A stretch of 64,000 nucleotides of DNA from IMG/VR virus record IMGVR_UViG_3300031228_000004, positions 2,320 through 66,319 of that record; one strand, 5' to 3'. Made by a program: the position numbers and the translations under genes. The stretch is from a virus. Within the stretch, counting starts at the first letter, position 1, and every line of letters starts with the position of its first letter. Positions 5,659 to 42,777 of this stretch are shown here, piece after piece. The notes beneath the pieces were generated by a model that saw only the letters and a program-made list of their open reading frames with translations, ran no database searches and was not told the origin of the DNA.

Positions 5659-5788
5659 CAGGCGCCCAGCGCACGCGAGGAGCCCTGCATCCCAACAGGT
5701 TCCTAGGCCACTGAGTTGGGAGGGCTCCTCGCGCGGTGTCCAGCACGCGGACTCCGTAGAACGGAGCGTAGCGCGACCGCCGAAGCGT

Positions 5789-5821
5789 CCGGAATGACCA
5801 TCGCGGATCCGCTGGCACCAT
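5789..5821 (+). promoter_or_regulatory. candidate late promoter (leaderless rmlB-like gene)
   Basis: CCGGAATGACC-N16-CACCAT-N7-ATG(5829); no RBS. Confidence 0.6.
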
Positions 5822-5828
5822 CCCGCGC

Positions 5829-6851
5829 ATGCGCATTCTTCTGAGCGGGGCGTCCGGGTTCGTCGGCTCCCACGTCCTCCACCACCTCCTCGCGCACACG
5901 GACGCAGAGATCATCTGCCCGTGGACGCTGCGCCACCACGGCAACACCCAACGCCTCGCCGCCGCCATCGACGGCTGCCCGCCCGGCACCGCCGACCGCG
6001 TCATCACCGTCATGCACGACCTCGCATGCCCCATGCCCGCGACGCTCGTCGACGAGATCGGCCCGGTCGACGCAATCCTGAACATCGCCTCCGAGTCCGG
6101 CGTCGAACACTCCATCGCCCGACCCGCCGAGTTCGTCCGCAACAACGTCGAGCTGATGACCAACCTCCTCGAATACGCGCGGCTCGTACAACCGCGGGTC
6201 TTCCTGCACATGGACACCGACGAGGTCTACGGCCCAGCCCCCGCCGGATACGCGCACCGCGAGTGGGACCCGATCATCCCGTCGAACCCGTACGCCGCAT
6301 CGAAGGCCGCCCAGTCCGCGCTCGCAACAGCGTGGTGGAGGACATACGGGCTCCCAGTGATCCTCACCCGCACCATGAACCTGATCGGCCCCGGCCAGGG
6401 TCCGGAAAAGCTGGTACCCACCGTGATCCGCAAGGTGATGGCCGGGGAAACCGTCCCGATCTACGCCTCACCAGACGGCGTCCCCGGCTCCCGGCACTGG
6501 ATCGACACCCGCGAGTTCGCCGGCGCGTGGCTGCACCTCCTCAACGGGCCGGCCCCGCAGATGTACCCGGAGTACGACCGGCCGTCGTTGTGGCACATCG
6601 TCGGCGAGGAACGCTCCAACCTCGACGTTGCGCACACCATCGCCGACATCATCGGCAAGCCCCTCAAGTACGAACTCGTCAGCTTTCACGCTTCTCGGCC
6701 TGGGCACGACCTGCGGTACGCCCTCGACGGATCGAAGCTCGCGGCCGCCGGATGGAAGCCGTCCCGCTCCATCGAGGACACCCTCACCGACATCGTCACC
6801 TGGTACAAGGACAACCCGGCCTGGTTGCAGATGCCCGAGGTGCAGGCGTGA
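5829..6851 (+). CDS. rmlB: dTDP-glucose 4,6-dehydratase-like extended SDR
   Basis: GASGFVG Rossmann motif, TDEVYG, YAASK, RPGHDLRYALD. Confidence 0.88.
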   Translation: MRILLSGASGFVGSHVLHHLLAHTDAEIICPWTLRHHGNTQRLAAAIDGCPPGTADRVITVMHDLACPMPATLVDEIGPVDAILNIASESGVEHSIARPAEFVRNNVELMTNLLEYARLVQPRVFLHMDTDEVYGPAPAGYAHREWDPIIPSNPYAASKAAQSALATAWWRTYGLPVILTRTMNLIGPGQGPEKLVPTVIRKVMAGETVPIYASPDGVPGSRHWIDTREFAGAWLHLLNGPAPQMYPEYDRPSLWHIVGEERSNLDVAHTIADIIGKPLKYELVSFHASRPGHDLRYALDGSKLAAAGWKPSRSIEDTLTDIVTWYKDNPAWLQMPEVQA

Positions 6852-7513
6852 AGGGCGTCGTCCTCGCCGGAGGCCGCGGTACACGGCTCGGTGACAGCAC
6901 CCGCGTGGTCAACAAACACCTGCTCCCGGTGTACGACGCGCCGATGATCTACCGGCCCATCCGTACGCTCCGGCAGATGGGATGCACGGACATCCTCATC
7001 GTCACCAGCCCCGAAGCGGTCGGCGACATGGCCCAACTCCTCGGCTCCGCCTTCACGTACCGAGTGCAGGAGAAACCCGACGGGGTAGCCGGCGCCCTGG
7101 CGCTCTCCGAGGGGTACGTGCCCAAGTACCAGACGTTCCCGGTCATCCTCGGCGACCAGTACTACGCCGAGCCGCAGCCGATGCCGAACACGCCCACCGT
7201 GTACGTCACCCCAGTCGATCAGCCGCAGGACTTCGGGGTCTACGACGAGGTAGGCAAGCGCATCGTCGAGAAGCCCACCGAGAACGTCGGGAACACGGGG
7301 GTCACCGGCCTGTACGCCTTCGATGACCGGGTCTTCGACATCATCCGTGATCTCGCTCCGTCCGATCGTGGGGAGTTGGAGATCAGCGACGTGGCGAACT
7401 GGTATCTCGGACACGGCGAACTCACTGTCGTCCCGGTGAGCGGCGCCTGGTGCGATATGGGGACGCCGGACTCGCTGCTGCGCGCGGCCCTCGATGTGAA
7501 AGCCGCGGCGTGA
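6848..7513 (+). CDS. rmlA: glucose-1-phosphate thymidylyltransferase-like nucleotidyltransferase (short, 221 aa)
   Basis: GVVLAGGRGTRL, KHLLPVYDAPMIY, QEKPDGVAGAL, IVEKP, RGELEISD, WCDMGTPDSL; GTG overlaps the rmlB stop. Confidence 0.88.
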   Translation: MKGVVLAGGRGTRLGDSTRVVNKHLLPVYDAPMIYRPIRTLRQMGCTDILIVTSPEAVGDMAQLLGSAFTYRVQEKPDGVAGALALSEGYVPKYQTFPVILGDQYYAEPQPMPNTPTVYVTPVDQPQDFGVYDEVGKRIVEKPTENVGNTGVTGLYAFDDRVFDIIRDLAPSDRGELEISDVANWYLGHGELTVVPVSGAWCDMGTPDSLLRAALDVKAAA

Positions 7514-8181
7514 GCGCCCCGTTCCGAGTGGTCGTGATCCCGACCAGGGACCGGCATGACCTGCTCACCGAGTGCGTCGGCTCCGTGGTGGACCAGGTCG
7601 ATACCGTGTTCGTGATCGACAACCAGTCCGTACCGCCGATCGACGTCGACCAGTGGTACGGCAAGGTTCGTGCCGTGCGGGCCCCGCTGGACCCGCCGAA
7701 CATCAGCACGCTGTGGAACATCGGCCTCGCTCTGGCTGACGCAGCACGGGGCGCCGCCGACCGGTGGGACATCGCCGTACTCAACTCCGATGTGACCGTG
7801 CCGCCCAGCTGGATCGACGGCCTGTCCACGGCGATGCGAGCCGGGCCGGCGGTGCTTGCCTACCCCGACCAGCACGGCGGCCGGCGCCAGATCCTCCACA
7901 CCAAGGCCGAACCGGTGGACCTGCGGACCCGGATCACCGGCTACGCGTACCTGCTGCGGGGCGAGGCAGGGCTGCGCCTCGATGAAGACCTGGCGTGGTG
8001 GTACGGCGACGACGACCTCGACTGGCGCGCCCGTGAGCAGGGCGGCGCGCTCCTGGTACCGGGCATGGCGGTTGAACACCGCTGCCCGAACGTGTCCACG
8101 AACGAGCGCCCCGAACTCCGGCAGCAGGCCGGACGCGACCGCGAAACGTTCCGGGCCAAATGGGGCCGCACCCCACACTGA
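7510..8181 (+). CDS. glycosyltransferase family 2 (GT-A)
   Basis: VVIPTRDR...FVIDN, AVLNSDV (DxD-like), WWYGDDDL...RA. Confidence 0.85.
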   Translation: MSAPFRVVVIPTRDRHDLLTECVGSVVDQVDTVFVIDNQSVPPIDVDQWYGKVRAVRAPLDPPNISTLWNIGLALADAARGAADRWDIAVLNSDVTVPPSWIDGLSTAMRAGPAVLAYPDQHGGRRQILHTKAEPVDLRTRITGYAYLLRGEAGLRLDEDLAWWYGDDDLDWRAREQGGALLVPGMAVEHRCPNVSTNERPELRQQAGRDRETFRAKWGRTPH

Positions 8182-8192
8182 ATGGAGCCACG

Positions 8193-9008
8193 TTGAAGAT
8201 CGCAGTAACAGGTGGTGCCGGGTTCTTTGGCCGCGCCACCATCGAAGCCGCCGAGCAGGCGGGGCATGAGGTGTGGGCGTTCGACCGTACGCAGGGCCTG
8301 GACGTCCTCGGCAGCCTGCACGCCCTCGAAGGCGCCGATGCGGTGATACATCTCGCCGGGGTCCTCGGCACGTCGGAGTTGTTCGACATGGCGGAGACCG
8401 CCATCCACGTCAACGTGATTGGCACGCTGCGCGTGCTGGAGTGGTGCCGCGAGCACGACGCCCGCTACGTCGGCGTCTCGATGCCGGACCCGTTCCCCAG
8501 CGTGTACACCGCGACGAAGGTCGCCGCCCGACGGCTGACCACCGCCTGGCATCACGCGTACGGGCTGCCCGTGTCGACGGTGCGGGCGTTCAACGGGTAC
8601 GGCCCCTACCAGCACTACGGGCCGGGCCACCCGCAGAAGATCGTGCCCACCTTCGCTCGAGCGGCGTGGGAGAACCGGCCGCTGCCGATCTGGGGTGATG
8701 GCGAGCAGGCCATGGACCTCGTGCACGCCGACGACGTCGGGCGGATGCTCGTTGAGGCCACCGGATACGGCGATGACGAGACGTTCGACGCGGGCACCGG
8801 CGTGGCGGTCACCGTGAACGAGCTGGCGGAGTTCGTGCTGAAGGAGACCGGCAGCCGGGCGGGCATCGAGCATCTGCCGATGCGTGCGGGTGAGGTGCCG
8901 GTGCAGATCACCGCGACGGGTGAGGGCTGGGACCGGCTGGACTGGAAGCCGGAGTTGGACTGGGATCGGATTGCTGAGACTGTGAGGTGGTACCGCGATG
9001 GCCGCTGA
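8193..9008 (+). CDS. NAD-dependent sugar epimerase/reductase (extended SDR)
   Basis: KIAVTGGAGFFG, VIHLAG, YTATK, RAFNGYGP, DLVHADDVG; TTG start with GGAG RBS. Confidence 0.85.
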   Translation: MKIAVTGGAGFFGRATIEAAEQAGHEVWAFDRTQGLDVLGSLHALEGADAVIHLAGVLGTSELFDMAETAIHVNVIGTLRVLEWCREHDARYVGVSMPDPFPSVYTATKVAARRLTTAWHHAYGLPVSTVRAFNGYGPYQHYGPGHPQKIVPTFARAAWENRPLPIWGDGEQAMDLVHADDVGRMLVEATGYGDDETFDAGTGVAVTVNELAEFVLKETGSRAGIEHLPMRAGEVPVQITATGEGWDRLDWKPELDWDRIAETVRWYRDGR

Positions 9009-10632: not shown

Positions 10633-11191
10633 GCCGGTCGTGACGGTCGTGGTCCCGTACCACGCGGCCCGCGTGAAGAACGGCATGCTCAAACGCGCGG
10701 TCGACTCCGTCAACCGGCAGACCGCACCCCACCTGCTGATCACCGTCGAAGACACCCTCGGCCAAGGCGCCGCCAAGACTCGGCAACGCGGCCTCGACCA
10801 AGTCACCACCGAATGGACCGCGTTCCTCGACTCCGACGACGAGATGGACCCCACCCACCTGCAACAACTCCTCGCCTACGCCGAACAGACCGGCGCCGAC
10901 TACGTGTACCCGTGGTTCCGGGTGGTCGGCGGACGCGACCCGTTCCCCATGTTCTTCGGCAAACCGTGGGACGACGCCCACCCGCACTCGACCACCATCA
11001 CCATCCTGGTGCGCACCGAGCTGGCGAAGACAGTCGGGTTCACCGGAGCCGGTGAGGACTTCCGCTTCACCAAAGGCTGCATCACCGCTGGCGCGAAGAT
11101 CGTGCACTACCCGGCGAAGACGTGGACGTGGCACCACGGGCCGCAGAACACGAGCGGCCGACCGAACCGCGGCGACGCCCGACACCGCTGA
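10625..11191 (+). CDS. glycosyltransferase family 2 (GT-A)
   Basis: VTVVVPY, RAVDSV..Q, GAAKTRQRGL, EWTAFLDSDD, GEDFRF. Confidence 0.85.
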   Translation: MSEPVVTVVVPYHAARVKNGMLKRAVDSVNRQTAPHLLITVEDTLGQGAAKTRQRGLDQVTTEWTAFLDSDDEMDPTHLQQLLAYAEQTGADYVYPWFRVVGGRDPFPMFFGKPWDDAHPHSTTITILVRTELAKTVGFTGAGEDFRFTKGCITAGAKIVHYPAKTWTWHHGPQNTSGRPNRGDARHR

Positions 11192-11302
11192 GTGGCGCCC
11201 CTTGTGCGCTTCTTCCCGGGGGCGCCCACGGGTCAATGAGGGCTCACGAGTACAAAAACCCTGGCGCACGGCCAGCGTACGAGGCGGCGACCAGACCCCA
11301 CT

Positions 11303-11335
11303 CCGGACAGCACACGCCCGAACAGCAGCCACAAT
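11303..11335 (+). promoter_or_regulatory. degenerate candidate late promoter (leaderless terL)
   Basis: CCGGACAGCAC-N16-CACAAT-N7-ATG(11343). Confidence 0.45.
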
Positions 11336-11342
11336 CCCAAGC

Positions 11343-12776
11343 ATGACCACCGAGGACTGGGAGCACTTCTTTCTCACCCCGATCGACTGGATCGAGCGTG
11401 AGCGCGCTGCCGCCCCGGACGCCATCCGCCGCCGAGCGGGATCGACCACAGGCGAACAGCTATCCGCTGCCACAAGCCCACGATGGACCCCGCTACCCCA
11501 CCAGATCCCGCCGGAGGGCGACTTCTACGGCTGGCTCTTGCTGGCCGGCCGAATGGCAGGCAAGACCGACGCCTGCGCCGCATACGTCCACGACCACGTC
11601 CACGGGCCGCCCTGCCTGCCCGGCCCCGTCCCGCACTGGATCGCCATCATCGGACCAACCCTCGGCGACGCCGTCACCTCATGCTTCTCCGGTCCATCCG
11701 GCCTGAGCGTCCACAGCCCAGACGCCAAACTTGCCACCGTCAAAGGCAGCACCATCGTTCGATGGCCTAACGGATCCGAAGCGAAGATCTTCGGCACGAA
11801 CGGCCCGAACGAAGTTGACCGTCTGCGTTCCGGCGGCAACCGATGCCTCGCATGGCTCGAAGAGTTGGCGGCGTGGCGGCATCTCGATGCCGCATGGAAC
11901 CACATGCGGTTCGGCCTCCGCGTCGGCCCACGCCCGCACTGGGTCGCATCCACGACACCGAAGCCCAAGCCCCTCATCAAGCAGCTGCACTCCGGCGCGG
12001 TCGCGAACGTCGAGTTGACACACGCCAGCTACCGCGACAACCCGCACATCTCCGAGGACATCAAAGCCTCCCTGGAAGAACGGTATGCGGGCACGCAGCT
12101 TGGCCGTCAGGAACTGTACGGCGAGCTGATCGAAGAAGACGAGAACGCACTCTGGCAGCACACGATGATCGACGACGCGCGCGTACGCCCCGGCGACGTC
12201 CCGGACCTCGTACGAATCACGGTCGGCGTCGACCCGTCCGGCGGGGCCGGAGAGCAGGGCATCGTCGTCGTCGGGAAGTCTGGGCTTGTGCTGCCAGGCG
12301 ATGGCGGCCGGCCGCAGCACCACGGCTACGTCCTCGACGACCGTTCGTGCCAGTTGTCGCCCGATGGGTGGGGCCGGCGCGCGGTGCAGGCCGCGATCGA
12401 CTGGGAAGCCGACGACATCGTGGTGGAGCGAAATTTCGGAGGGGACATGGCTGTGGCAACACTGCGCGCGGCGGCCGATGCTCTCGGCGTGGACATCCCG
12501 ATCCGAACCGTCACCGCGACGCGGGGCAAGGCGGTGCGAGCGGAGCCGGTGGCGGCACTCACTGCACAGAACCGGTGGCATCACGCTGGCGAGTTCCCGA
12601 AGCTGGAGGACCAGATGGCGACCTGGTATCCGGAGGCTGGTTGGTCACCGGATCGCCTCGACGCGGCCGTTTGGGGAGCGTGGCATCTGAAGCTCGTGGG
12701 TACGGCGGCGCGCGGTACGGGTTCGTTGGGTGGGGAGTTGGCCAGAAAGCAGATCGTCGGCGGGCGCGTACGTTGA
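11343..12776 (+). CDS. terL: terminase large subunit
   Basis: Walker A region AGRMAGKT, Walker B AWLEE, GRQELYGE, nuclease VGVDPS, DDIVVERNFGG, SPDRLDA. Confidence 0.92.
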   Translation: MTTEDWEHFFLTPIDWIERERAAAPDAIRRRAGSTTGEQLSAATSPRWTPLPHQIPPEGDFYGWLLLAGRMAGKTDACAAYVHDHVHGPPCLPGPVPHWIAIIGPTLGDAVTSCFSGPSGLSVHSPDAKLATVKGSTIVRWPNGSEAKIFGTNGPNEVDRLRSGGNRCLAWLEELAAWRHLDAAWNHMRFGLRVGPRPHWVASTTPKPKPLIKQLHSGAVANVELTHASYRDNPHISEDIKASLEERYAGTQLGRQELYGELIEEDENALWQHTMIDDARVRPGDVPDLVRITVGVDPSGGAGEQGIVVVGKSGLVLPGDGGRPQHHGYVLDDRSCQLSPDGWGRRAVQAAIDWEADDIVVERNFGGDMAVATLRAAADALGVDIPIRTVTATRGKAVRAEPVAALTAQNRWHHAGEFPKLEDQMATWYPEAGWSPDRLDAAVWGAWHLKLVGTAARGTGSLGGELARKQIVGGRVR

Positions 12777-12780
12777 CGGC

Positions 12781-13215
12781 ATGGAGACTTGGCTGCTGCT
12801 GCTCGTGATGTCGCTCGCGGTGTACCGGCTGACGCGGTTGATCGTGGCCGACACGTTCCCTCCGGTGCTGTGGTTGCGTGACCGGGTCGCGGGCGGTTGG
12901 CGTGAGCCGACGATGAAGGAGCAGCACCATGAGCTGTTTCCGACCGGCGAGGTTGAGGAGCACACGCTCAAGTCGGTACCGGGCCTGGGGATGTTCCGGC
13001 TCGTCGAGGGTGAGTTGTTCATCTACGCCCGTCGGTGGAAGCGGTCGCCGTTCTGGCTGGCCGAGTTGATCTCGTGCCCGTGGTGCTGCTCGGGCTGGGT
13101 CGCGCTCGCGGTGACGGCCGGGACGTGGGCCACGGTCGGGCTGCCGGTGCCGTTGCTGGTGTGGCCTGCGGTGTGGGCGGCCGGGGCGTTGATCGCGGCA
13201 CAGGAATGGGCGTGA
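12781..13215 (+). CDS. DUF1360-like membrane protein with CPWC (CxxC) motif
   Basis: LAVYRLTRLIVAD...LISCPWCCSGW followed by two hydrophobic helices. Confidence 0.75.
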   Translation: METWLLLLVMSLAVYRLTRLIVADTFPPVLWLRDRVAGGWREPTMKEQHHELFPTGEVEEHTLKSVPGLGMFRLVEGELFIYARRWKRSPFWLAELISCPWCCSGWVALAVTAGTWATVGLPVPLLVWPAVWAAGALIAAQEWA

Positions 13216-13408: not shown

Positions 13409-15208
13409 ATGGCCTGGTACCACGCCTTTACGCGTCGCGGCCCCATGCCCGCGCCCAAGCCGCACACCCCCGACCAACCCAACGCAATCACCGCAGCCGC
13501 AGCCCCCGTCACCAGCCCCAGAACCGAACTCATCCGCAACACCGACACCTGGCAACAAGAAGCCTGGCAGTTCTACAACGACCTCGGCGAACTCCGATAC
13601 GCCGTCGAGTGGATCAGCGCCATGCTCTCCCGCGTACGCGTCTACGCCGCGAAAATCGAACCCGGCGAAGACGAACCCGTACGCGCAACAGCCGGGGCAG
13701 CCGTCGACCTCATGACCACCCTCGGCGGAGGCGTCGCCGCACAAGCACAACTCATGTCAGCCATGGCCACCCAACTCGCCGTCCCCGGCGAAGGCTATTT
13801 GGTCGGCGAGACCATCAACGGCGTCGAGCAATGGGCGGTCCGCTCCACCGACGAAGTCCGCGCCGCCCGCGGCCACTACGAAGTCATCGACGAGAACTCG
13901 GCGAACGGCGGCGCGCAGTGGCGCCCGCTCGGCTCCAACTCGCTGGTGACTCGCGTGTGGCGCCCGCACAAGCGCTACCACTACATGGCCGACTCCCCAG
14001 CCCGCGCGGCCCGCTCCACGATGCGCGAGCTGGAGCTGGTGAACCGGCACATCGTCAGCCAGTACCTCAGCAGGCTCGCCTCCGCAGGCGTGTGGTTCGT
14101 GCCGTCCGAGGTCACCTTCCCCGTGCGGGAGGAGTTCGCCGACGCCCCGGATCCGTTCATGGCCGAGTGGATCGAGATCGCCGCCGAAGCCATCCGCACG
14201 CCGGGCACCGCGGCGGCAACTGTGCCTATCCCGATCAAGGTTCCGGAAGAACTGATCGGCAAGTTCCAGCACCTCGACTTCACGATGAAGCTCGACGAGA
14301 AGATCCTGGAGAAGCGTGACTCCGCGATCAAGCGTCTCGCCACCCAGCTCAACCTTCCTGCCGAAGTCCTCCTCGGTATGGGCGACGTCAACCACTGGGG
14401 CCAGTGGATGTTGGAAGAGTCCGCGGTCAAGACCAACATCGCGCCCGAAGCCGAACTGATCTGCCAGGCCCTCACCACTGGCTACCTCCAGCCCCGGCTG
14501 AAGGCGTCCGGCGTGGAGGACTTCGCGCAGTGGGTCGTCTGGTACGACCTGTCCGAGCTGACGCTGCGCCCGGACCGCTCCGACGACGCCATCCAGCTGT
14601 ACGACCGGCTGGAGATCAACGGCGCAGCACTCCGCCGCGAAACCGGGTTCAACGAGGACGACCGGCCCGAGGGCGACGAGCTCCACGACCAGGGCCTCAA
14701 AGTCATCATCAAGAGCCTGCCGACCGCAGCAGCCAGCGCCCTCTCACAACTCACCGGCCAAGCCAACGAGGTCACCCAAACCACCGACACGACGCCCCGC
14801 GCTCCCGCCGATCCGGAACCTCCACCCGAGGACCGGACACCGCCCGACACCCGCAGCGAACCACCACCAACGAACGAGGCGGCACGGCAGGCAGCGGCCG
14901 ACGCACGCTCCGAACGCATGGCCCAACAGGCGAAAGCCCTCCACGCAGTCAGGTTCGCTGCTGGCCGTCCGCCGGACCTGCTGCACCCGGCGCTGTGTTC
15001 CTCGCACGCCTACTCCTGCCCGTTCACGCACGCGGCGGCCAAGCTGGCGACGCTCCCTCGGCCGGGCACGTCGGGCGTGTACGAGGCGCGGCTGTCCGCG
15101 TTCGGGCAGCTCACGATCGGCCGGCTGTCCCCGCATCTGGACACCACGGGTTTTCTGACCACCGTCTCCCCTCGGAGTTCCAATGGGTTCGCTCACGGCC
15201 GCCGCTGA
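13409..15208 (+). CDS. portal protein
   Basis: Follows terL; WQQEAWQFYNDLGELRYAVEW, RVWRPH, RLASAG, E.LLGMGDVNHW motifs of actinophage portals. Confidence 0.85.
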   Translation: MAWYHAFTRRGPMPAPKPHTPDQPNAITAAAAPVTSPRTELIRNTDTWQQEAWQFYNDLGELRYAVEWISAMLSRVRVYAAKIEPGEDEPVRATAGAAVDLMTTLGGGVAAQAQLMSAMATQLAVPGEGYLVGETINGVEQWAVRSTDEVRAARGHYEVIDENSANGGAQWRPLGSNSLVTRVWRPHKRYHYMADSPARAARSTMRELELVNRHIVSQYLSRLASAGVWFVPSEVTFPVREEFADAPDPFMAEWIEIAAEAIRTPGTAAATVPIPIKVPEELIGKFQHLDFTMKLDEKILEKRDSAIKRLATQLNLPAEVLLGMGDVNHWGQWMLEESAVKTNIAPEAELICQALTTGYLQPRLKASGVEDFAQWVVWYDLSELTLRPDRSDDAIQLYDRLEINGAALRRETGFNEDDRPEGDELHDQGLKVIIKSLPTAAASALSQLTGQANEVTQTTDTTPRAPADPEPPPEDRTPPDTRSEPPPTNEAARQAAADARSERMAQQAKALHAVRFAAGRPPDLLHPALCSSHAYSCPFTHAAAKLATLPRPGTSGVYEARLSAFGQLTIGRLSPHLDTTGFLTTVSPRSSNGFAHGRR

Positions 15209-18068
15209 CGGCTCGCACACGTCGGGCGCGATGATTGCGCTGATGCCCACGCTCGAGGATGCGGAGCGGCTGGCGATCGAGGGCGGCGAGGCCGCGGATC
15301 AGCTGCACTTGACGCTGTACTTCCTCGGCGACGACGGCGCCGACTTCAGCGAAGAGCAGCGGGCTGCGCTCGTCGAGGCCATCAAGCAGGCGACGCACCT
15401 CGCTGGCGGTCCGATCTCTGCTCGGGTCTTCGGTGCCGCTCACTGGAACGCGGGGTCTGACTCGCCGTCGTGGGTGTGGTCGGTCGGCGATGACCGGGAT
15501 GCTGGCCCTGATGCTCCACGGCTGGAGGACGGGCGGACCGTGGCGGCCGAGGGGCTGCTGCAGAGTGGTCTGTTCGCAGACATGCCCGTGCAGCATTCGC
15601 CGTGGCAGCCGCATATCTGTGCCGCGTACTCCGACGAGTTGGATCTCGTCATCGCGTTGGAGGAGCGCCTCGGACCGGTCACCTTCGACCGCATCCGGGT
15701 GGCGTTCGCCGGGGAGCACACGGACATCCCGCTCGGCGAGAGCATGACCGCGGCGGCTGGTCCGCTGCGCCGTCAGCCCACGGAACTCGAACTCGCGAGC
15801 CGCGCCGACTTCGCGCAGATAGACAAGGCCTGGCACGAGGCCGTCGATGCCACGGTCGAGGCGTGGGCCAGCGCGCAGGAGGCGATGCGCGCCGAGGTCA
15901 CCGCCAGCATCCAAGCCGCCGCCGAGGCCGACGACTTGGACCGCCTCGACGGGCTCACCGTGGACACCGACGACGGCTCGCGTCTCCTGATCGCCCGCAT
16001 GATCGCGTACGCGCGGGAGGCAGGCGAGCAGCAGCAGGCGGAGGCCGAAGCGCAGGGCGTCGACGTCCCGGAGTGGTCCCTCGACGACGAGGCGCTGACG
16101 GCTGCGGCGATCCGTGACCGGCTGCGCCAGGTCGGCCGGACGACAGCCCGCTACCTGGGTGTTGGGCTGGTGCAGTCCGCAGTGCGGCAGGCGATGCGGG
16201 TGTGGGGTTCGGGTTCGGCGGAGCAGGTGGCCGCGCAGGTCGACGAGCACCTCGCGGGCCTGTCCGGTGCGGCAGTTGAGGAGCAGGTGGGTGCGGCGAT
16301 GAGTGCCGCGCAGAACGAGGGCCGCATGGCAGTCCTCGCGGTCGCGCCCCCGGCCGAGTACGTAGCCACGGAGATCCTCGACAGCAAGAACACCTGCAAG
16401 CCCTGCCGCGAGATCGACGGCACCCGCTACACCACCCTTCCCGACGCCCGCACCGCATACCCGTCCGGCGGCTACACGGGCTGCCTCGGCGGCTCCCGAT
16501 GCCGGGGCACGCTCGTCACGGTGTGGCCGCAGGCGGACGAGCAGGCAGCAGCCGCCGGAATGATCTTGGCGGCTTCCGCGGACACAATGCCGCCCAACAT
16601 CCATGAAGGAGGCGGCACCGTGCCGTACCGCATCGAGCAGGGGCACCCAGACTGCGGTGCCGACACCCCATGGGCCGTCATCAAGGAAGGCGACGGCGAA
16701 CTCATGGGCTGCCACGAAACCGAAGCCGCAGCCCTGGAACAGCAGGCCGCGCTGTACGCCGAAGACGACGACAAGCCCGACGACGACATGGACTACACGG
16801 GCGACACCGCCCCGTGGGAAGGCGTCCTCGCCGTCGAAGGCATCGTCACCGGCGACGGCCGCGAGTTCGCCGAAGGCGCCCTGCAGTGGGCAGACCTCCC
16901 CATCCCATTGAGGTGGAACAAGGAAGACTCCCACGGCGGGGAACCCCACACCGTCGCCGTCAACGTCGGCCGCATCGACAAGGTGTGGCGCGACGACAAC
17001 AAGATCATGGGCGCCGGAGTTCTCAACCTCGCCGAGGCGGACGGGCAGCGCGTCCACGACATGATCAAAGGCGAGTTCATCCGCGGCGTCAGCATCGACG
17101 CCGACTCCATCGCGGACGCCGACGTCGAGTACGTCTTCCCCGAAGACGTCAACGAGGGCATGGACGACGAGGGCGACCTCTTCGAGATGCTCTTCGCCCA
17201 GCCCGAGAAAGTCATCTTCCACGGCGGACGCATCCGCGCCGCCACGCTGGTGGACATCCCGGCGTTCGCCGAGGCGTACGTCGCGCTCCTCGACGAGGCC
17301 GGCGCGATCGTGGCCGGCGGGCAGCCCGTCGGTGAGGCCGCCATCCAGACCGTGGCCGGTCAGGAGCCGGAGCCGGTCCGTGCGCTGCGCGCGGTTGCTG
17401 CGTCGGGTGGGGTGTGGAAGCCGCCTGCCGCCTGGTTCTCGGATCCGAAGCTGTCGCTGCCCACGCCGATCACGGTCACGGACGACGGCCGGATCTACGG
17501 GCACGCCGCGCAGTGGGGTGTGTGCCACATCGGGTACGACGGGGTATGCGTCCAGGCGCCACACGAGGACGAGCACCCGTACTACCGCACCGGGGAGATC
17601 GTGTGCGCGGACGGTGGCCGTGTGGCGGTCGGTCAGATCACGGTCGGTACTGGCCATGCCGACACGCATCTGGGAGCGAACCCGGCGGCGGAGCACTACG
17701 ACAACACGGGCGCGGCCGTCGCTGATGTGAGTGTGGGCAACGACCAGCATGGCATCTGGGTGGCGGGCGCGGTGCGGCCGGGCGCGGACCCGCTGCGTGT
17801 GTATGAGCTCCAGGCCGCGGGCCAGGTGTCGGGTGACTGGCGGCGGATCGGCGGCCAGTTGCGGCTTGTCGGTCTCCTCGCGGTGAACGTGCCTGGTTTC
17901 CCGGTGCCGAAGATGCGGGCGCGGGTGGCGGGTGGTCAGGTTCAGGCGCTGGTGGCGGCGGGTCGTCCGACGGTGGCGTTCGGTCTGTCGCCGGAGGAGA
18001 CGGAGCGTCATGCGGTGCGGATTGTGATGCGGATGCTGTCGCGTCGTGTCCACCCTGGAAGGGGGTGA
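15183..18068 (+). CDS. fusion: 2H phosphoesterase (LigT-like) + MuF-like minor head domain + capsid maturation protease
   Basis: LHLTLYFLG and WQPHICAAY (2H); ATEILD..TCKPC...GCLGGSRCRG (MuF); EGIVTGDGR...GVSID...ATLVDIPAF (protease); located between portal and capsid. Confidence 0.8.
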   Translation: MGSLTAAADGSHTSGAMIALMPTLEDAERLAIEGGEAADQLHLTLYFLGDDGADFSEEQRAALVEAIKQATHLAGGPISARVFGAAHWNAGSDSPSWVWSVGDDRDAGPDAPRLEDGRTVAAEGLLQSGLFADMPVQHSPWQPHICAAYSDELDLVIALEERLGPVTFDRIRVAFAGEHTDIPLGESMTAAAGPLRRQPTELELASRADFAQIDKAWHEAVDATVEAWASAQEAMRAEVTASIQAAAEADDLDRLDGLTVDTDDGSRLLIARMIAYAREAGEQQQAEAEAQGVDVPEWSLDDEALTAAAIRDRLRQVGRTTARYLGVGLVQSAVRQAMRVWGSGSAEQVAAQVDEHLAGLSGAAVEEQVGAAMSAAQNEGRMAVLAVAPPAEYVATEILDSKNTCKPCREIDGTRYTTLPDARTAYPSGGYTGCLGGSRCRGTLVTVWPQADEQAAAAGMILAASADTMPPNIHEGGGTVPYRIEQGHPDCGADTPWAVIKEGDGELMGCHETEAAALEQQAALYAEDDDKPDDDMDYTGDTAPWEGVLAVEGIVTGDGREFAEGALQWADLPIPLRWNKEDSHGGEPHTVAVNVGRIDKVWRDDNKIMGAGVLNLAEADGQRVHDMIKGEFIRGVSIDADSIADADVEYVFPEDVNEGMDDEGDLFEMLFAQPEKVIFHGGRIRAATLVDIPAFAEAYVALLDEAGAIVAGGQPVGEAAIQTVAGQEPEPVRALRAVAASGGVWKPPAAWFSDPKLSLPTPITVTDDGRIYGHAAQWGVCHIGYDGVCVQAPHEDEHPYYRTGEIVCADGGRVAVGQITVGTGHADTHLGANPAAEHYDNTGAAVADVSVGNDQHGIWVAGAVRPGADPLRVYELQAAGQVSGDWRRIGGQLRLVGLLAVNVPGFPVPKMRARVAGGQVQALVAAGRPTVAFGLSPEETERHAVRIVMRMLSRRVHPGRG
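16555..16622 (+). promoter_or_regulatory. internal late promoter + RBS + in-frame GTG inside the fusion gene
   Basis: CCGGAATGATC-N17-CACAAT, then AAGGAGG, 7 nt, GTG(16620) starting VPYRIEQGHPDC. Confidence 0.6.
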
Positions 18069-18262: not shown

Positions 18263-20029
18263 GTGGCAGCCGAAGAGCTCTTTAGCGCCCCGTCCGATCT
18301 CACCCTCGCGTCCGACGCCGACCTCACCGAACTCGAAGCCCGAGGCACCGCCGAGTTCGACCGCGTCCACGCCCTCGACGACGTCGACGACCAGGCGCTC
18401 CAGTACGCGCTGCGCGTCACGGAAGATCTCGACCGCATTCGCGCCGAGCTCCGCGTCCGCGAGGTCCGCGCCGAGCAGCAGGCCGCCATGCAGCAGTCCC
18501 GCGTCGCCGACCAGCTCTCCCAGCTCCAGGCCCGCGTCCACGGGGGCACCGCAGCAGTAGCCGCCGAGCAGCCCGCTCCGCAGGTCGACGTCGAGGCGAT
18601 CGCTGCCGCTGCCGCACGCGGCGTCACGGCCGGCATGGCCACCCTCATGATGGACCGCCGCGGCGGCTCCGTCCGCCCCGAGGAAGTCGCCCGCCGCGCC
18701 ACTGCCTCCCTGGCAGAGACCGCGCAGCATGCGCCGAAGCCCAACGTCCCCGAACAGCGCCTCGCCGTCACCGCGAGCGTGGACATCCCCGGCGTCGCCC
18801 GCGGCGAAGGACTCACCAGCCTGGCCGCGCTCGCAGACGTGACGTCCCGCAAGGCCAAGAGCATGCCCGTCACCCAGGGCGCCCCCAGCGAGCAGCTCGT
18901 TGCATCCGTCCGCAACGAGTTCGAGCACGGGCACACCGTGGACAACCGCACCAAGCGCGGCGAGATGAAGGACCTCATCTCGTTCCTGACTAGCCCCGAC
19001 AAGCAGGCCGCGCTCGTCGCCGGTGGAGGTTGGTGCGCCCCCAGCCAGACCAGGTACGACTTCTTCAACATCGCCTGCGAATCCGGCATGATCGACCTGC
19101 CGACCTTCGGCGTCACCCGCGGCGGCATCGAGTTCCCCGTCTCCCCGAGCCTCGCCGACGCCCTGGCCGGAGGCACCGCCTTCGCCGGGTTCGCGGCCAC
19201 CTTCTCCAACGAGAGCACGCCGTTCCTGTGGAGCGAGGCCGACGACATCGCGGCCGCCACCGGTTCACCGACCAAGCCGTGCATCCGGGTGCCCTGCCCG
19301 GACTTCGACGAGGAACGGCTGGAGGCGTACGGATACTGCCTGACCGCGGGCAACCTCACCGACGAGGCCTACCCGGAGGCGACGCAGAACACGCTCCAGT
19401 TGCTGATGTCGGCGCACGCGCGCATCGTGAACGCCCGCCTGATCGCGCTCATGCTGGCCCGCTCCACCGCTGCCATCACCATCACCGGAGGCGCCATCAC
19501 CGACGCGGCCGCACCACGGATCTACAACGCGGTGGGGCTGGCCGCGACGGACTACCGGGCCCGCTACGGCATGTGCATCGACGACGTCCTCGAAGTGGTG
19601 CTCCCGTACTGGGTGCGCGACGTCATCCAGGCCGACCTCGCGTGGAAGGCGGGCGTCGAGCTGGGTGACATTCCGCTGTCGGAGGTCAACCGGTATTTCA
19701 CCGCCCGCAACGTCGCCGTGCAGTGGGTCAACGACTGGCAGGTCCGTGGCGCTGGCCAGTTCGGCAACGCGACACCGATGACGGCGTGGTCGACGACCGC
19801 GGACTTCCTCATCTACGCCGCAGGCACCTTCATCCACGGGCAGGGCATGAGCCTCGACCTCGGTGTCATCCGCGACTCCGTCCTGAACGAAACCAACGAC
19901 CACACCGCCGCGTGGAGCGAGGAAGCCCACCTCATCGCCCGCGTCGGCCACGAGTCCCGCCGGTACACGGTCGGCTTCAACGTCAACGGTGCCACGTCGG
20001 CGCTGCTGTCCGGCACCGTCCGCGTCTGA
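18263..20029 (+). CDS. major capsid protein with N-terminal coiled-coil scaffold domain
   Basis: 588 aa; helical E/A/Q-rich N-terminus, then LVAGGGWCAPSQTRYD, TRGGIEF motifs (recalled as cluster-B-like capsids). Confidence 0.85.
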   Translation: MAAEELFSAPSDLTLASDADLTELEARGTAEFDRVHALDDVDDQALQYALRVTEDLDRIRAELRVREVRAEQQAAMQQSRVADQLSQLQARVHGGTAAVAAEQPAPQVDVEAIAAAAARGVTAGMATLMMDRRGGSVRPEEVARRATASLAETAQHAPKPNVPEQRLAVTASVDIPGVARGEGLTSLAALADVTSRKAKSMPVTQGAPSEQLVASVRNEFEHGHTVDNRTKRGEMKDLISFLTSPDKQAALVAGGGWCAPSQTRYDFFNIACESGMIDLPTFGVTRGGIEFPVSPSLADALAGGTAFAGFAATFSNESTPFLWSEADDIAAATGSPTKPCIRVPCPDFDEERLEAYGYCLTAGNLTDEAYPEATQNTLQLLMSAHARIVNARLIALMLARSTAAITITGGAITDAAAPRIYNAVGLAATDYRARYGMCIDDVLEVVLPYWVRDVIQADLAWKAGVELGDIPLSEVNRYFTARNVAVQWVNDWQVRGAGQFGNATPMTAWSTTADFLIYAAGTFIHGQGMSLDLGVIRDSVLNETNDHTAAWSEEAHLIARVGHESRRYTVGFNVNGATSALLSGTVRV

Positions 20030-33181: not shown

Positions 33182-33670
33182 GTGTCTGCCCGCATCTGCT
33201 CGCTGATCTGCCCTGAATCTCAGACCATCCCAGCCGATGGCAAATACCACCTTCTCCGCTTTCCGTTCGGCGGCGGCGAGTCGTATGACGCGTGGGGCAT
33301 GCACCAGATGCAGCAGCCCGACGGGTACACGATCACAGACTGGCGAACGGATCCCAGGTCGGGGCTGATCTGGCCCGCCGCGGACGGGTGGGGTTCCCTG
33401 ACCGGGGTGATCTATTGGGCGTCTGGAAACTACACCGAGGTCCGTGACCGGTTCGTTCGCGATCCCCTCAACTTGACCACGGGCTACAACTCGACGGCTA
33501 CCGAGGACGAAGAGCCGACGCCGGGCGGCCAGTACCTACACAAATCACACGAGATGTTCGTGCACCCAAACGTACCGATCGGGCTGCTCGTCAAGCACAA
33601 CGCCAGCGGGCCAGTGGACGTCACGCACGCGCAGTTCAAACTCGCGATCCATCCCGTAGAGGAGCCGTGA
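33182..33670 (+). CDS. hypothetical beta-rich protein upstream of endolysin
   Basis: GGAGG RBS with GTG; adjacent to lysin. Confidence 0.7.
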   Translation: MSARICSLICPESQTIPADGKYHLLRFPFGGGESYDAWGMHQMQQPDGYTITDWRTDPRSGLIWPAADGWGSLTGVIYWASGNYTEVRDRFVRDPLNLTTGYNSTATEDEEPTPGGQYLHKSHEMFVHPNVPIGLLVKHNASGPVDVTHAQFKLAIHPVEEP

Positions 33671-33671
33671 C

Positions 33672-34556
33672 ATGGCTTGGTATCCGGGCGCCGTGAAGAT
33701 GGAGTTGCAGCCCGAGAGCGATCAGCAGCCCGCGATCCGGCCGACGCAGCTCATCTTCCACAGCATCGTCGCCCCGTGGACGCCGCGGCGGACGTATGAG
33801 TTCTGGCGGGACAGCTCGGCGCTTGAGTCGCATTTCGGTGTCGGTTATGACGGGGACATCGCCCAGTACATCGGCACCGAGACTCGCGCGGACGCGAACG
33901 CTCAGGCCAACCGGCGCCCGGACGGCACCGGCGCGGTGTCCGTCGAGACCGCCTCCAACACCAGCGCGTCCGACCCGTGGACGGCCGAGCAGATCGAGGA
34001 ACTCGTCAAACTCGGCGTGTGGATACACGAGCGGCACGAGGTCCCGCTGCGGATCTGCCGCAGCCACACCGACCCCGGATACGGCTACCACCGCCTGTTC
34101 CCACAGTGGTCGACCACGGGCACCGTGTGCCCCGGAAACGCGCGCGTACGGCAGTTCAACGAGATCGTTTTCCCGGGCATCGTCTCCCGGGCGACTGGAG
34201 GTGATGACCTCGTGACCATCAACAAGACCGAGTTCCGCCAGGCCCTTGTGGACGCGCTCGGCTACAAGGACGTACGGCAGGCACTGTGCCGCGCCGCGTG
34301 GCTCACAGACGACGTGACCGGGGTCCCTGCCGAGTGGACATCGGAGGGCAACGCGGAGTGGATGCCGTGGTCTGTGGTGGTCACTGACGGCAAGAAGATC
34401 CGCAGTATCGAAGCCGCGGTGAACGCGCTCACCGCAACCGGGCTGACGGACACCCAGATCCAGGCCATCGCCGACAAGGTCGCCGCATCCCCGCAACTGG
34501 CCGACGCCATTGCCTCCAAGGTCGCGGACCTCCTCGCCGCGCGCCTCACCGAATAG
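33672..34556 (+). CDS. endolysin, N-acetylmuramoyl-L-alanine amidase (Amidase_2)
   Basis: LIFHS, SHFGVGYDGDIAQY, SVET, GYHR...T.CPG zinc-amidase motifs. Confidence 0.85.
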   Translation: MAWYPGAVKMELQPESDQQPAIRPTQLIFHSIVAPWTPRRTYEFWRDSSALESHFGVGYDGDIAQYIGTETRADANAQANRRPDGTGAVSVETASNTSASDPWTAEQIEELVKLGVWIHERHEVPLRICRSHTDPGYGYHRLFPQWSTTGTVCPGNARVRQFNEIVFPGIVSRATGGDDLVTINKTEFRQALVDALGYKDVRQALCRAAWLTDDVTGVPAEWTSEGNAEWMPWSVVVTDGKKIRSIEAAVNALTATGLTDTQIQAIADKVAASPQLADAIASKVADLLAARLTE

Positions 34557-38477: not shown

Positions 38478-38499
38478 GCCCCGCTTGATCCGGCGGGGC
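38478..38499. terminator. hairpin between convergent genes
   Basis: GCCCCGC/GCGGGGC stem. Confidence 0.45.
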
Positions 38500-38509
38500 T
38501 TCGGCGCGT

Positions 38510-38701
38510 CTACGCGGCCTTCACGATCTCGGCCTGTACGGCTGCCGCCCACTCCGCGTACAGCTCATCCAGCCGGTCCCGCGCGTCGCCCACCAGCTGC
38601 ACGCGCGGATCCCGCCGCTCGTCTCCCCACAGGGCGCGGATCTCCTCGTTCACGGCGGCAGCAGACCGCACGGAACCAAGGCGCTCACCATCGGGGGACA
38701 T
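38510..38701 (-). CDS. small helical hypothetical protein (leaderless)
   Basis: VRSAAAVNEEIRALW...EWAAAV..AA, recalled as a Streptomyces small-protein pattern; TACGCT-N7-ATG. Confidence 0.65.
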   Translation of the reverse strand: MSPDGERLGSVRSAAAVNEEIRALWGDERRDPRVQLVGDARDRLDELYAEWAAAVQAEIVKAA

Positions 38702-38833
38702 GCAGACAAGCGTACGGGCCCCGACCGACACCCCTACCACAGACCGGTCACGGCCCCGCAGACCCACCACACGAGAAAGGCCCCGCCCCATACCCTGACA
38801 GTGACGAGCTGTACAGAAGTAAGGGGCGAGACC

Positions 38834-40084
38834 GTGCCAACTGATGCTACCCCGGACCCGTACGCCGACCCGATCCGCTTCGGCCAACGAGTGCAAGTCC
38901 TCCGCGAACGCCGCGGCATGACCCAGGCCCAACTCGCCGACCTCGTCGGCATCTCCGAACACACCCTCCGCAAAATCGAGAACGGGCAACGCAAGACACC
39001 CGACCTCGAGCGGGTGATGCGCATCGCAGAGGCCCTACGGGTACGTGACCTCTCCGACCTGACAGGCCGCCCAGACATGCACGTAGACCTCTTCATCGGC
39101 CCCGGCCACCCACGCCTCGCCGCGGTGAAGGCCGCCGTCGATAACTTCGCCCTCGCCTCGAGCGCCGAACCGCCGCCGGTCCCGCACCTCGAGGCCCGCC
39201 TCCACGCCGCGTGGAAGGCCCGGCACGCAGCGAAGAACCACCGCGAAGCAATCGGGAAGCTCCTGCCCGACCTGATCCGCGACGCGCAGACCCTCGTACG
39301 GCACGCCGACACAGGCAACGACCGTCGCCGCGCGCAGGCTCTCCTCGCCGAGACGTACTCGCTGTCCCAGTTCTTCGTCGCCTACCAACCCGACTCGAGT
39401 CTGCTGTGGCGTGTTGCCGAACGCGGCATGGTCGCAGCCCAAGACAGCGGCGACCCCCACGCGATCGGCGTCGCCGCATGGCTCCTCGCACAAGCCCACC
39501 GAGACTCTGGCCCCCGCCACTTCGACGCGGCGGACGCCATCAACCTCGAGGCCGTCCGCTTCCTCGAGCCGCTCCTCCCCGACGCGAGCGACGATGTCCT
39601 GGCGATCGCGGGCGCCCTCGAGTTCGAGCTCGGCTACACCGCGGCCCGCCGGCGGGAGACGGGTACGGCGTGGCGGCACTGGGACAAGGCCAACACCATG
39701 GCGACCCGGCTGCCCGCCCACTACTACCACCCGATCACCTCGTTCTCGCAGGCCATCATGGGCGCCCACGCCGTGACCGTCGCCGTCGAGCTGCACCAGG
39801 GCGGGGAGTCCGTACGGCAGGCCGCTCGAGCAGACGAGGCGTCGATTCCCTCGAGGCCGCGCCGCGCCCGGCACCGGATCGAGGAGGCGCGCGGCTACCA
39901 GCTCGATGCGCAGCCGGACGTCGCGATCGCCACGCTCGAGAAGGCGGCCCAAACTGCACCCGAGACGATCAAGTACAACGGGTACGCGCGCGCCATCATC
40001 CTCGAGGAAGTCGAGTCGACGCAGGCGCCCCGACGGCGGCGCGCGTCGGAACTGGCGATGGAGATCGGGCTGTTGGCCGCCTGA
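38834..40084 (+). CDS. XRE-family HTH regulator with long helical (TPR-like) C-terminus
   Basis: RERRGMTQAQLADLVGIS...RKIENGQR HTH, then ~340 aa of helical repeats. Confidence 0.85.
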   Translation: MPTDATPDPYADPIRFGQRVQVLRERRGMTQAQLADLVGISEHTLRKIENGQRKTPDLERVMRIAEALRVRDLSDLTGRPDMHVDLFIGPGHPRLAAVKAAVDNFALASSAEPPPVPHLEARLHAAWKARHAAKNHREAIGKLLPDLIRDAQTLVRHADTGNDRRRAQALLAETYSLSQFFVAYQPDSSLLWRVAERGMVAAQDSGDPHAIGVAAWLLAQAHRDSGPRHFDAADAINLEAVRFLEPLLPDASDDVLAIAGALEFELGYTAARRRETGTAWRHWDKANTMATRLPAHYYHPITSFSQAIMGAHAVTVAVELHQGGESVRQAARADEASIPSRPRRARHRIEEARGYQLDAQPDVAIATLEKAAQTAPETIKYNGYARAIILEEVESTQAPRRRRASELAMEIGLLAA

Positions 40085-41250: not shown

Positions 41251-41584
41251 GGGCCCACGCTCGCGACTTCAAGATCCAAAGTATGCAGGGTCGACCCTAC
41301 ATTGTGTGATCTTGCAGTGGGCGGGGAACCGGTCAGGGACGCCGCGCGATCACAGACTGGGAGCCACGGTCGAGAAACCTCGCGCGAGGTACTCCTCCGT
41401 CCAGATGGCGGAACCGTGGCTCCCTGCCGCCCCGAGCCCTACAGTGGGCTCGGGGCGGCGCCCGTTTCCAGGGCGTCGGATCCTCGCCAAAATGGGACAG
41501 AAGATAGGCCAAGCGCCCTGCATTAATTCGGCGAAGCGTGACCAGGGGAAACCCCAGGTGAGCACAGCGCTTAGGCCCGTACAC

Positions 41585-41628
41585 CTTCTAAGCGCTTGGC
41601 CGCAGGTTCGAGTCCTGCCGGGGGCGCA
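41585..41628 (+). mobile_element. attP core = 3' half of tRNA-Arg(UCU)
   Basis: CTTCTAA anticodon loop, GCGCT stem, GGTTCGAGTCC T-loop, acceptor 3' strand; the 5' half of the tRNA is absent; ~190 bp upstream of integrase. Confidence 0.85.
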
Positions 41629-41814
41629 AACCACCCTTCACCAGCAACAACAGGTGAGGGGCTCTTTCATGTTCACCCCGCACAGTGCTTTTTCGCCAAG
41701 CGCCTTGCGTCTTTCGCGAATCAGCGTAGCGTCGACCTCATCCCCTCAAGGACCCCACCCGGGAACCGCAGAGACAAAGCCATCCCCATACCCGAACCGG
41801 TACGGAGCACGCCC

Positions 41815-42777
41815 ATGGCCGACGCCCCCCGCCCCTACGACATCGGACCCCTCACCGCCTCCTGGATCCGCTCCCTACGCGCCCGCAACCTCAGTGCCAA
41901 CACCCAGCGGATCTATGCCCGCGCCGTAGGCGAACTCCGCACGTTCCTCCTCAACTACGAACCCGACCCCGCCGTACCCGGAGCCCGCCCCGCACCCACC
42001 GCACTCGACGGCGCCCGCGGCATCCACCGCGAACACATCGAGACCTACATCGACAACCTGATGACACGGACATCGCCGGGCAACGCACACCAGCACTTCC
42101 GGTCGCTCAAGACGTTCTTCAACTGGGCCGTCGACGAAGAGGAGATGGACCGCTCCCCCATGCGCACGATGAAAGCCCCCACCCTGCCCGAGGTCGAAGT
42201 GCCGATCATCCCCGACGACGCCCTGAAGAAACTCCTCGGCGTATGCAAGGGAAAGGGCTTCGAGGAGCGCAGGGACACCGCGATCATCATGATGTTCCTC
42301 GACACCGGGGCCCGCCTGTCCGAACTGACGGAGCGGACCCAGGAGAAGCTCGACCTCGACCTGATGGTGCTGCACGTGCAGGGCAAGGGGAACCGGGAGC
42401 GGCCGGCGCCGTTCGGCCGGGCGACGGCGGTCGCGATGGACCGGTATCTGCGGGTGGCTGGCAAGCACGTGGGGCGGGCGCTGGAGCCGAAGGATCCGCT
42501 GTGGTTCAGCGTCAAGAGGAAGGAGTCGCTGACGATCTGGGGTGTAGGGACGATGATCGAGCGGCGGTGCATCCAGGCCGGGATCCCGCACATTCACCCG
42601 CACCAATTCCGGCACACGTTTGCTCACCTGTGGAAGGTGAACCGGGGAGACGAGGACGCACTCATGCGGATCATGGGGTGGCGGTCACGACAGATGCTGA
42701 ACCGATACGGTGCGTCGGCGGGCGAGGAGCGGGCCCGTGCACAGCATCGGGAGCTGAGCCCCGGCGACCGCCTGTAG
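41815..42777 (+). CDS. int: tyrosine integrase
   Basis: DTGARLSEL (R), VQGKG (K), HPHQFRHTFA (HxxR), GWRSRQMLNRY (W...Y). Confidence 0.93.
   Translation: MADAPRPYDIGPLTASWIRSLRARNLSANTQRIYARAVGELRTFLLNYEPDPAVPGARPAPTALDGARGIHREHIETYIDNLMTRTSPGNAHQHFRSLKTFFNWAVDEEEMDRSPMRTMKAPTLPEVEVPIIPDDALKKLLGVCKGKGFEERRDTAIIMMFLDTGARLSELTERTQEKLDLDLMVLHVQGKGNRERPAPFGRATAVAMDRYLRVAGKHVGRALEPKDPLWFSVKRKESLTIWGVGTMIERRCIQAGIPHIHPHQFRHTFAHLWKVNRGDEDALMRIMGWRSRQMLNRYGASAGEERARAQHRELSPGDRL

Follow-up and report, generated by a model that had tools for sequence, protein, structure and literature searches.

Why should a phage attach a phosphoesterase domain to the protein with which it assembles its head? The question is raised by a 961-residue head-assembly polyprotein encoded at 15183-18068 on the plus strand of a 64,000-nucleotide stretch of viral DNA (positions 2,320 to 66,319 of IMG/VR virus record IMGVR_UViG_3300031228_000004; the whole stretch is referred to here as the window), in which a domain of the 2H phosphoesterase superfamily is followed, in this order, by a MuF-like segment, a prohead protease and a conserved C-terminal domain. 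We propose with moderate confidence, and as the best explanation of what is described below, that the 2H domain, which belongs with the LigT clade, is an optional cargo carried on a head-internal polyprotein and injected into the host, where it would carry out phosphodiester chemistry as a counter-defense.

The open reading frame (ORF) is uninterrupted over its 2,886 nucleotides and must be coding throughout since the third-position GC content is 0.82-0.94 in every 300-nucleotide block. The 2H domain occupies residues 15-187 (15225-15743; this and all other features of the polyprotein are on the plus strand) and contains two H-x-T/S-type motifs approximately 100 residues apart and each behind a hydrophobic strand, which is the pattern by which the 2H superfamily is recognized. 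Motif 1, His42-Leu-Thr44 (15306-15314, within LHLTLYFLG, with His42 at nucleotide 15306), aligns with the LHLTL of both LigT and the Thermus 2'-5' RNA ligase (1iuh), and motif 2, His144-Ile-Cys146 (15612-15620, within PHICAAY, with His144 at nucleotide 15612), aligns with the PHITLA of 1iuh. An earlier note on this DNA, made from its letters alone, had described a 961-residue ORF with these two histidines, and both the ORF and the motif positions are exactly as it gave them.

Single-sequence searches are nearly blind to this domain, which as a single sequence has no match in the PDB, and for this reason profiles and structure prediction were needed. In PHROGs, polyprotein residues 4-187 match phrog_2659 (labeled 'RNA ligase') at 1e-27. 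When residues 1-200 are used as the query in an exhaustive search, the 2H domain is matched by 1,420 representative proteins at E ≤ 1e-3, of which 112 reach E ≤ 1e-30, and E-values within the family go down to 1e-66. A profile of 111 relatives of the domain (termed A1) matches 1iuh at 4e-4, and in this alignment the two His motifs coincide. The phrog_2659 match, the 1,420 representative relatives and the profile match to 1iuh together show that the motifs are not there by chance. Across 148 aligned family members, which share 40-60% identity, His42 and Thr44 are invariant and His144 is found in 147, while the third position of motif 2 is filled by Cys in 88 members and by Thr in 53, with Ala (five) or Ser (two) in the others. 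The alternation of Cys and Thr is thus family-wide, and HxC is an alternative to HxT rather than a defect of the copy in the window.

Modeled with AlphaFold2 on the A1 profile, the 2H domain has a predicted local distance difference test score (pLDDT) of 92.7 and a predicted template modeling score of 0.87. The top structural match of the model is 1iuh (Z 14.2, root mean square deviation 3.3, 159 residues aligned), and the other matches include Deinococcus cyclic phosphodiesterase (Z 13.5), E. coli LigT (5ldi; Z 12.8 over model residues 14-186, Foldseek E 1e-6), Usb1 (Z 12.5), the rotavirus VP3 phosphodiesterase (Z 11.6), Acb1 (Z 9.0-9.4), and a phosphodiesterase from Burkholderia phage BCSR5 (9q2y/9q2g), for which a literature search found no paper. 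Among the matches listed, all 44 entries at Z ≥ 8 are 2H proteins. The Pfam matches of the 111 A1 relatives point the same way, as 84 match PF13563 2_5_RNA_ligase2 (best 3.8e-14) and 36 match PF02834 LigT_PEase, while only six match the Acb1 model PF23474, and these weakly (best 2.4e-4); the window's own 2H sequence has no match to PF23474. According to the model, residues 15-187 are a member of the 2H superfamily with its bilobed alpha+beta fold. Its nearest affinity is with the LigT/2'-5' RNA ligase clade, it is neither a LigT orthologue nor a member of the Acb1 family, and from its conserved residues it is predicted to be a catalytically intact enzyme of the LigT clade. The name 'RNA ligase' that it bears in databases goes back to LigT and is misleading. 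The 2H fold proposed in the earlier note is therefore borne out when the model is set against both Acb1 and LigT, whereas the Acb1-like identity that it raised is not supported, the fold being closer to LigT and the 2'-5' RNA ligases.

The same note had read a MuF-like domain and a protease behind the 2H domain, and this arrangement holds. Residues 196-455 (15768-16547) form a divergent MuF-like head-morphogenesis segment with a CxxC at 16395-16406 and a Cx5C at 16482-16502, and the assignment is probable but not proven. The segment is in the MuF position, right after the portal gene, it is matched by phrog_595 at 1.8e-7, and it is the sole MuF candidate in the record, where there is no second match to PF04233 (Phage_Mu_F) at E ≤ 1. 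The window's own segment has no Pfam match, and PF04233 is matched weakly by 10 of 17 close homologues (best 1.7e-5). When compared by hhalign with the Pfam-positive MuF segments of related polyproteins, its D..T..C...DG and C-R-C/G blocks align.

Residues 540-715 (16800-17327) are, on the basis of a model of moderate quality (pLDDT 73.5), a prohead (capsid maturation) serine protease of the assemblin/T4 gp21 fold. In a wide structural search the model matches the varicella-zoster virus protease at Z 10.0, with the next unrelated fold at 6.5, and it matches T4 gp21 (5jbl) at Z 9.8 (root mean square deviation 2.7, 121 residues aligned), while its best Foldseek match is a herpesvirus protease (3e-4). 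Weak matches to Pfam Peptidase_S77 (1.4e-3) and TIGR01543 cover the same stretch, and a single-sequence PDB search with residues 195-961 returned noise only. The candidate catalytic dyad consists of His584 (nucleotide 16932) and Ser637 (17091), which are 53 residues apart and are present in 14 and 17 of 17 relatives, respectively. The protease is accompanied in its relatives by the beta-rich C-terminal domain (residues 743-902; 17409-17888), with variable inserts of up to ~360 residues between the two. This domain has invariant His, Trp and SGDW residues, a model confidence of 70-89, and matches to phrog_18402 and phrog_29860 over residues 737-927; its counterpart in Gordonia phage Mutzi, gp18, carries the annotation 'capsid maturation protease'. 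At the MuF/protease border there is a candidate internal start (16606-16622), in which AAGGAGG is followed after seven nucleotides by an in-frame GTG (codon 480, nucleotide 16620). This is one of just two AGGAGG sites in the polyprotein ORF, and gp15 of Streptomyces phage TurkishDelight (L010) has AGGAGG, five nucleotides and an in-frame ATG (codon 477) just upstream of its protease module. Judging from these sites, the protease may also be translated separately from codon 480, as with lambda C/Nu3, and if so, protease molecules with the cargo would be few in relation to plain ones.

Direct evidence that a 2H domain of this family is present in purified phage particles comes from Gordonia phage GMA2, the virion preparation of which was analyzed by mass spectrometry (Dyson et al., 2015; PMC4524720, S5 Table). 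Only three proteins, Orf9, Orf10 and Orf16, were reported from it. Orf9 is a phrog_776 portal protein, the family to which the portal of the window also belongs, and Orf10, encoded by the next gene, is an 883-residue founder-type member of phrog_2659 in which the A1 profile places the 2H domain, including its HLTL and PHIT motifs, at residues 718-876 (E 2.7e-23). We mapped 12 of the 18 published GMA2 peptides. One, starting SEVGDY, corresponds to Orf10 residues 825-846 and spans the second catalytic His (PHIT), and the 11 other mapped tags fall within residues 292-639. The evidence is thus a single peptide, but it lies inside the domain itself. The N-terminal 700 residues of Orf10 have no detectable relation to the MuF-like segment or the protease of the window, and hence the virion evidence can be transferred to the 2H domain only. 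The packaging suggested in the earlier note is made more plausible by this peptide, and the 2H domain of the phage in the window is probably carried into its capsid.

The distribution of the domain is also informative. It is carried by 401 sequenced phage records, usually under the label 'RNA ligase', from phages of Mycobacterium (209), Gordonia (170), Streptomyces (17) and Rhodococcus (4). The polyprotein as a whole is matched by 1,168 phage records, mostly through its protease, but only 401 have the 2H domain, which is thus an optional accessory module. It is found in none of the polyprotein-matching Microbacterium or Arthrobacter phages. The order seen in the window (2H, MuF-like, protease) occurs in six relatives (P0005, P0014, P0025, P0027, P0032 and P0037), but the domain is also found between a classical MuF and a protease (P0006 and TurkishDelight gp15, the latter 63% identical in the 2H domain), after a MuF and an intein (P0012), directly after a MuF (P0063), before a ClpP-type protease (P0040 and P0044), and after a protease-type domain (Gordonia phage Geodirt gp16). 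Of 147 relatives, 49 have the domain at the N-terminus, 55 have it internally and 18 at the C-terminus, and in 25 it stands alone, although some of the terminal positions may stem from truncated metagenomic ORFs, and on a quick tree of 148 tips the position class changes at least 47 times.

Stand-alone 2H genes often remain within the head module. In Mutzi such a gene (gp19) follows the protease gene, in one contig (L007) it follows the portal gene, and in two others it comes directly after a gene for a MuF-ADP-ribosyltransferase fusion. A fusion gene of this kind (ADPrib_exo_Tox) often precedes the 2H gene or domain in relatives (L001 3010-5040; L008 3515-6004), with Mutzi gp14, L008 and the contig of P0062 as examples, which suggests that there are head modules with two cargo enzymes and that a functional link between ADP-ribosylation and 2H chemistry is possible. 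Co-expression alone hardly accounts for the repeated fusion of one domain to a number of unrelated proteins of the capsid interior, which fits a cargo that has to be taken into the prohead.

The route that we envisage for the 2H domain has four steps. The polyprotein would enter the prohead by means of its MuF and protease parts, the protease would then trim it, the 2H domain would be retained in the mature head and exit with the DNA, and in the new host it would serve as a counter-defense by performing phosphodiester chemistry of the 2',3'-cyclic-phosphate type on a ribose-phosphate substrate. The liberation of the domain by the protease, its passage into the host and the nature of its substrate are all inferred. 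With regard to the substrate, we lean slightly and tentatively toward RNA ends or RNA. Other compounds are about as possible, such as the ADP-ribose-derived cyclic phosphates that are suggested by the MuF-ADP-ribosyltransferase genes that often adjoin 2H, and immune nucleotide signals are possible but a little less so.

Several points weigh against this proposal. For the phage in the window, the activity of the enzyme and its processing, packaging and ejection are predictions from sequence and models. The window's own 2H sequence has no match to any Pfam 2H model at E ≤ 0.01, it scores 13.9 bits where the cut-offs of the LigT/ThpR equivalog models TIGR02258 and NF011704 are 65.7 and 184, respectively, and Cys146 stands in motif 2 in place of the canonical Thr/Ser. 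The MuF assignment is weak, as the hhalign comparison gave E 0.0017 with a probability of only 15%. GMA2 Orf10 has a different architecture, with a C-terminal 2H domain behind an unrelated N-terminal part, and the GMA2 particle preparation could contain proheads. Moreover, RtcB, RNA ligase (PF09414), Tpt1 and TROVE are absent from the record, which is approximately 77% complete, and it has no tRNA genes; with no RNA-repair partners, a complete RNA-repair route is not visible. A search of the record for ADP-ribosyltransferases was also without a match, but as it was equally matchless in every genome it is uninformative.

Among the alternatives, the one that survives best is an RNA-directed enzyme delivered together with the DNA, which either processes the 2',3'-cyclic phosphate ends that are produced by host ribotoxins and anticodon nucleases or acts on host RNA as a Usb1-like RNase. 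We consider this a realistic possibility but on balance an unlikely one. The closest solved relatives of the domain are RNA 2',3'-cyclic phosphodiesterases and 2'-5' RNA ligases, the Pfam families of its relatives are 2_5_RNA_ligase2 and LigT_PEase, and an RNase role was favored by Iyer et al. (2017) by analogy with PBECR-MuF fusions. In addition, two stand-alone relatives, P0036 and P0055 (47-50% identical), adjoin tRNA and TROVE/Ro60-like genes in two phage-like contigs of metagenomic origin (L004 564-4402 and L006 3926-12342). We had to reject these as two independent pointers to RNA, since P0036 and P0055 are nearest neighbors on the tree, and the tRNA/TROVE context counts only once, as that of a single lineage, which is a further point against our proposal as well. 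An ATPgrasp_Ter protein and an AcrVA2-like protein are also encoded nearby in L006. The RNA-directed alternative is further opposed by the lack of repair and tRNA genes in the record. The 2'-phosphate product of LigT-type enzymes is not a substrate for RtcB-type sealing, and because of this healing alone would not restore the RNA.

Less probable than an RNA-directed enzyme, in our estimation, is the Acb1-like activity proposed in the earlier note, in which an enzyme delivered by the virion destroys cyclic oligonucleotide signals (of CBASS, or the cyclic oligoadenylates of type III CRISPR) before the phage genes are expressed. Immune nucleotides are degraded by a number of viral 2H enzymes with a LigT-like ancestry, and the structural matches of the domain include Acb1, the poxvirus cyclic GMP-AMP phosphodiesterase and the 2',5'-phosphodiesterases of rotavirus and coronavirus (Z 8.6-11.6). 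Such a role was proposed for 2H-MuF/portal fusions by Iyer et al. (2017), packaging is plausible, and GMA2 Orf10 has a sub-threshold match to the Acb1 Pfam model (19.6 bits, where the cut-off is 27 bits). On the other hand, Acb1 is a weaker structural match than 1iuh or LigT, few of the 111 relatives touch its Pfam model compared with 2_5_RNA_ligase2, and the window's own sequence does not match it at all. Acb1 proteins are, moreover, reportedly small and stand-alone rather than fused to virion proteins. A more specific form of this idea is that the MuF-protease polyprotein brings the 2H domain into the capsid, that the protease releases it in cis, and that the pre-made enzyme, once injected, destroys a host immune nucleotide signal or its precursor (with a 2',3'-cyclic or 2'-5' phosphodiester) from the first seconds of infection. 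We rate this form as unlikely, and slightly more so than the general one; if it were true, the domain would be a virion-borne counterpart of Acb1 that is widespread in phages of Mycobacterium, Gordonia and Streptomyces.

It is improbable, in our view, that the 2H domain acts only in the producing cell, late in infection and within an abundant late protein, and is removed or degraded during maturation without ever reaching another host. Expression of head genes is late and high, self-digestion of prohead proteases and their loss from the capsid are common, and the candidate ribosome-binding site and GTG at the MuF/protease border suggest separate products, all of which would suit such a role, but the repeated fusion to different capsid-internal proteins would be left unexplained by co-expression alone and the GMA2 virion peptides include the 2H domain. 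Finally, that the domain serves as a structural or scaffolding spacer without catalytic activity, or that its motifs are a chance resemblance, is very improbable in spite of the HxC variant and the lack of a Pfam match for the window's own sequence, as hardly any member of the aligned family departs from the two His residues and Thr44, the 2H fold is predicted with confidence, and the family E-values are as low as those given above.

The genes around the polyprotein form a standard head module. The source is a 67.7-kb linear IMG/VR virus record, most of which is covered by the window, where GC content is ~68% and nearly every gene is on the plus strand. The gene order is that of large terminase (11052-12776; Pfam Terminase_6N/6C), portal protein (13409-15208, plus strand; phrog_776 at 5.6e-128 and a weak Pfam Phage_portal match), polyprotein, which is recognized from its ORF and translation and from PHROG matches along its length, and, directly downstream, major capsid protein (18263-20029, plus strand; phrog_777 at 6.8e-121). 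The 3' end of the portal gene overlaps the start of the polyprotein by 26 nucleotides. The position corresponding to 12691-13215 contains a DUF1360 membrane protein in the related contig L008 and a 'membrane protein' in TurkishDelight. Upstream of the terminase gene, at 5772-9008, there are two NAD-dependent sugar epimerase/dehydratase genes and a family-2 glycosyltransferase, which could represent phage-encoded glycosylation, perhaps of the virion. An Amidase_2 lysin, a helix-turn-helix (Cro/C1-type) protein and a tyrosine integrase are encoded at 33660-34556, 38489-40084 and 41575-42777, respectively, and the record looks like that of a temperate actinophage.

The idea that a 2H domain on a MuF or portal protein targets RNA or defense nucleotides is already published and has been in print since 2017, and the protein in the window is an ordinary member of a computationally described family. 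Iyer, Burroughs, Anand, de Souza and Aravind (2017; PMC5512222, section 20) described 2H domains in polyvalent proteins and as solo phage genes, noted that they are fused to MuF or portal domains and are never associated with RNA ligases, and proposed either a Usb1-like RNase or the degradation of nucleotides from nucleotide-activated defense systems. A 2022 survey of NAD-ADPr systems (PMC9503650) took the 2H fusions to suggest packaging in the head and injection against oligonucleotide immune signaling. Phage annotation has not followed, as the SEA-PHAGES label is 'RNA ligase' or the domain goes unmentioned within a 'capsid maturation protease and MuF-like fusion protein', and it is left unannotated in TurkishDelight. 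In surveys of Microbacterium and Rhodococcus phages the term 'RNA ligase' denotes only RtcB or genuine ligases and the 2H domain is passed over, a mycobacteriophage pangenome paper does not mention it, and our search of the literature found no experimental study of the domain. What is added here is the mapping of the GMA2 peptides, the Pfam tally and the architecture survey. If it is delivered with the DNA, the 2H domain would be among the commonest packaged enzymes of actinobacteriophages; the 401 records that carry it include the large Bxz1-like group of mycobacteriophages. The identity of its substrate would reveal an RNA-cleaving or nucleotide-signaling defense that is met in Mycobacterium, Gordonia and Streptomyces hosts, and is relevant to the host range of phages and to how therapeutic mycobacteriophages are designed. 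The 2H family as a whole is a worthwhile experimental target.

How does the protein in the window compare with known systems? The closest are the 'RNA ligase' and head 2H domains of actinobacteriophages (phrog_2659 and phrog_18402; Mutzi gp19, Geodirt gp16, GMA2 Orf10 and TurkishDelight gp15), which are of the same family with up to 63% identity, and which have the same location in the head module and the same kinds of fusion partner. They differ in arrangement, as the 2H domain is at the extreme N-terminus in the window, between MuF and protease in TurkishDelight, behind a protease-type domain in Geodirt and a separate gene in Mutzi. The 2H-MuF/portal fusions of Iyer et al. likewise have a 2H domain on a head-packaged MuF protein, for which injection and a target in RNA or a defense nucleotide are predicted, although those papers are computational surveys without experiment and do not emphasize the two features seen in the window, a prohead protease on the same chain and a cargo at the N-terminus. 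With LigT/ThpR and the Thermus and Pyrococcus 2'-5' RNA ligase-like proteins (1iuh, 5ldi, 4qak and 1vdx) the 2H domain shares its fold over ~150-160 residues (Z 12.7-14.2) with the HxT motifs aligned, but it is only 18-20% identical to them, is far below the TIGR02258 cut-off and has HxC as motif 2, and they are stand-alone cellular enzymes whereas it is fused to virion proteins. Acb1 (the T4 gp57B family, PF23474; 7t26/7t27) has in common with it the superfamily fold, a phage origin and a possible counter-defense role, but the domain in the window is larger (~175 compared with ~140-150 residues), is fused to head proteins and matches Acb1 at a lower Z. The MuF cargo enzymes, namely the T4 Alt-like ADP-ribosyltransferases and the MuF-VIP2 proteins of Microbacterium phages (PMC7302621), also place an enzyme on a portal-associated head protein that is predicted to be a virion component. 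Their cargo is usually C-terminal to MuF, whereas the 2H domain in the window is N-terminal and its chemistry differs.

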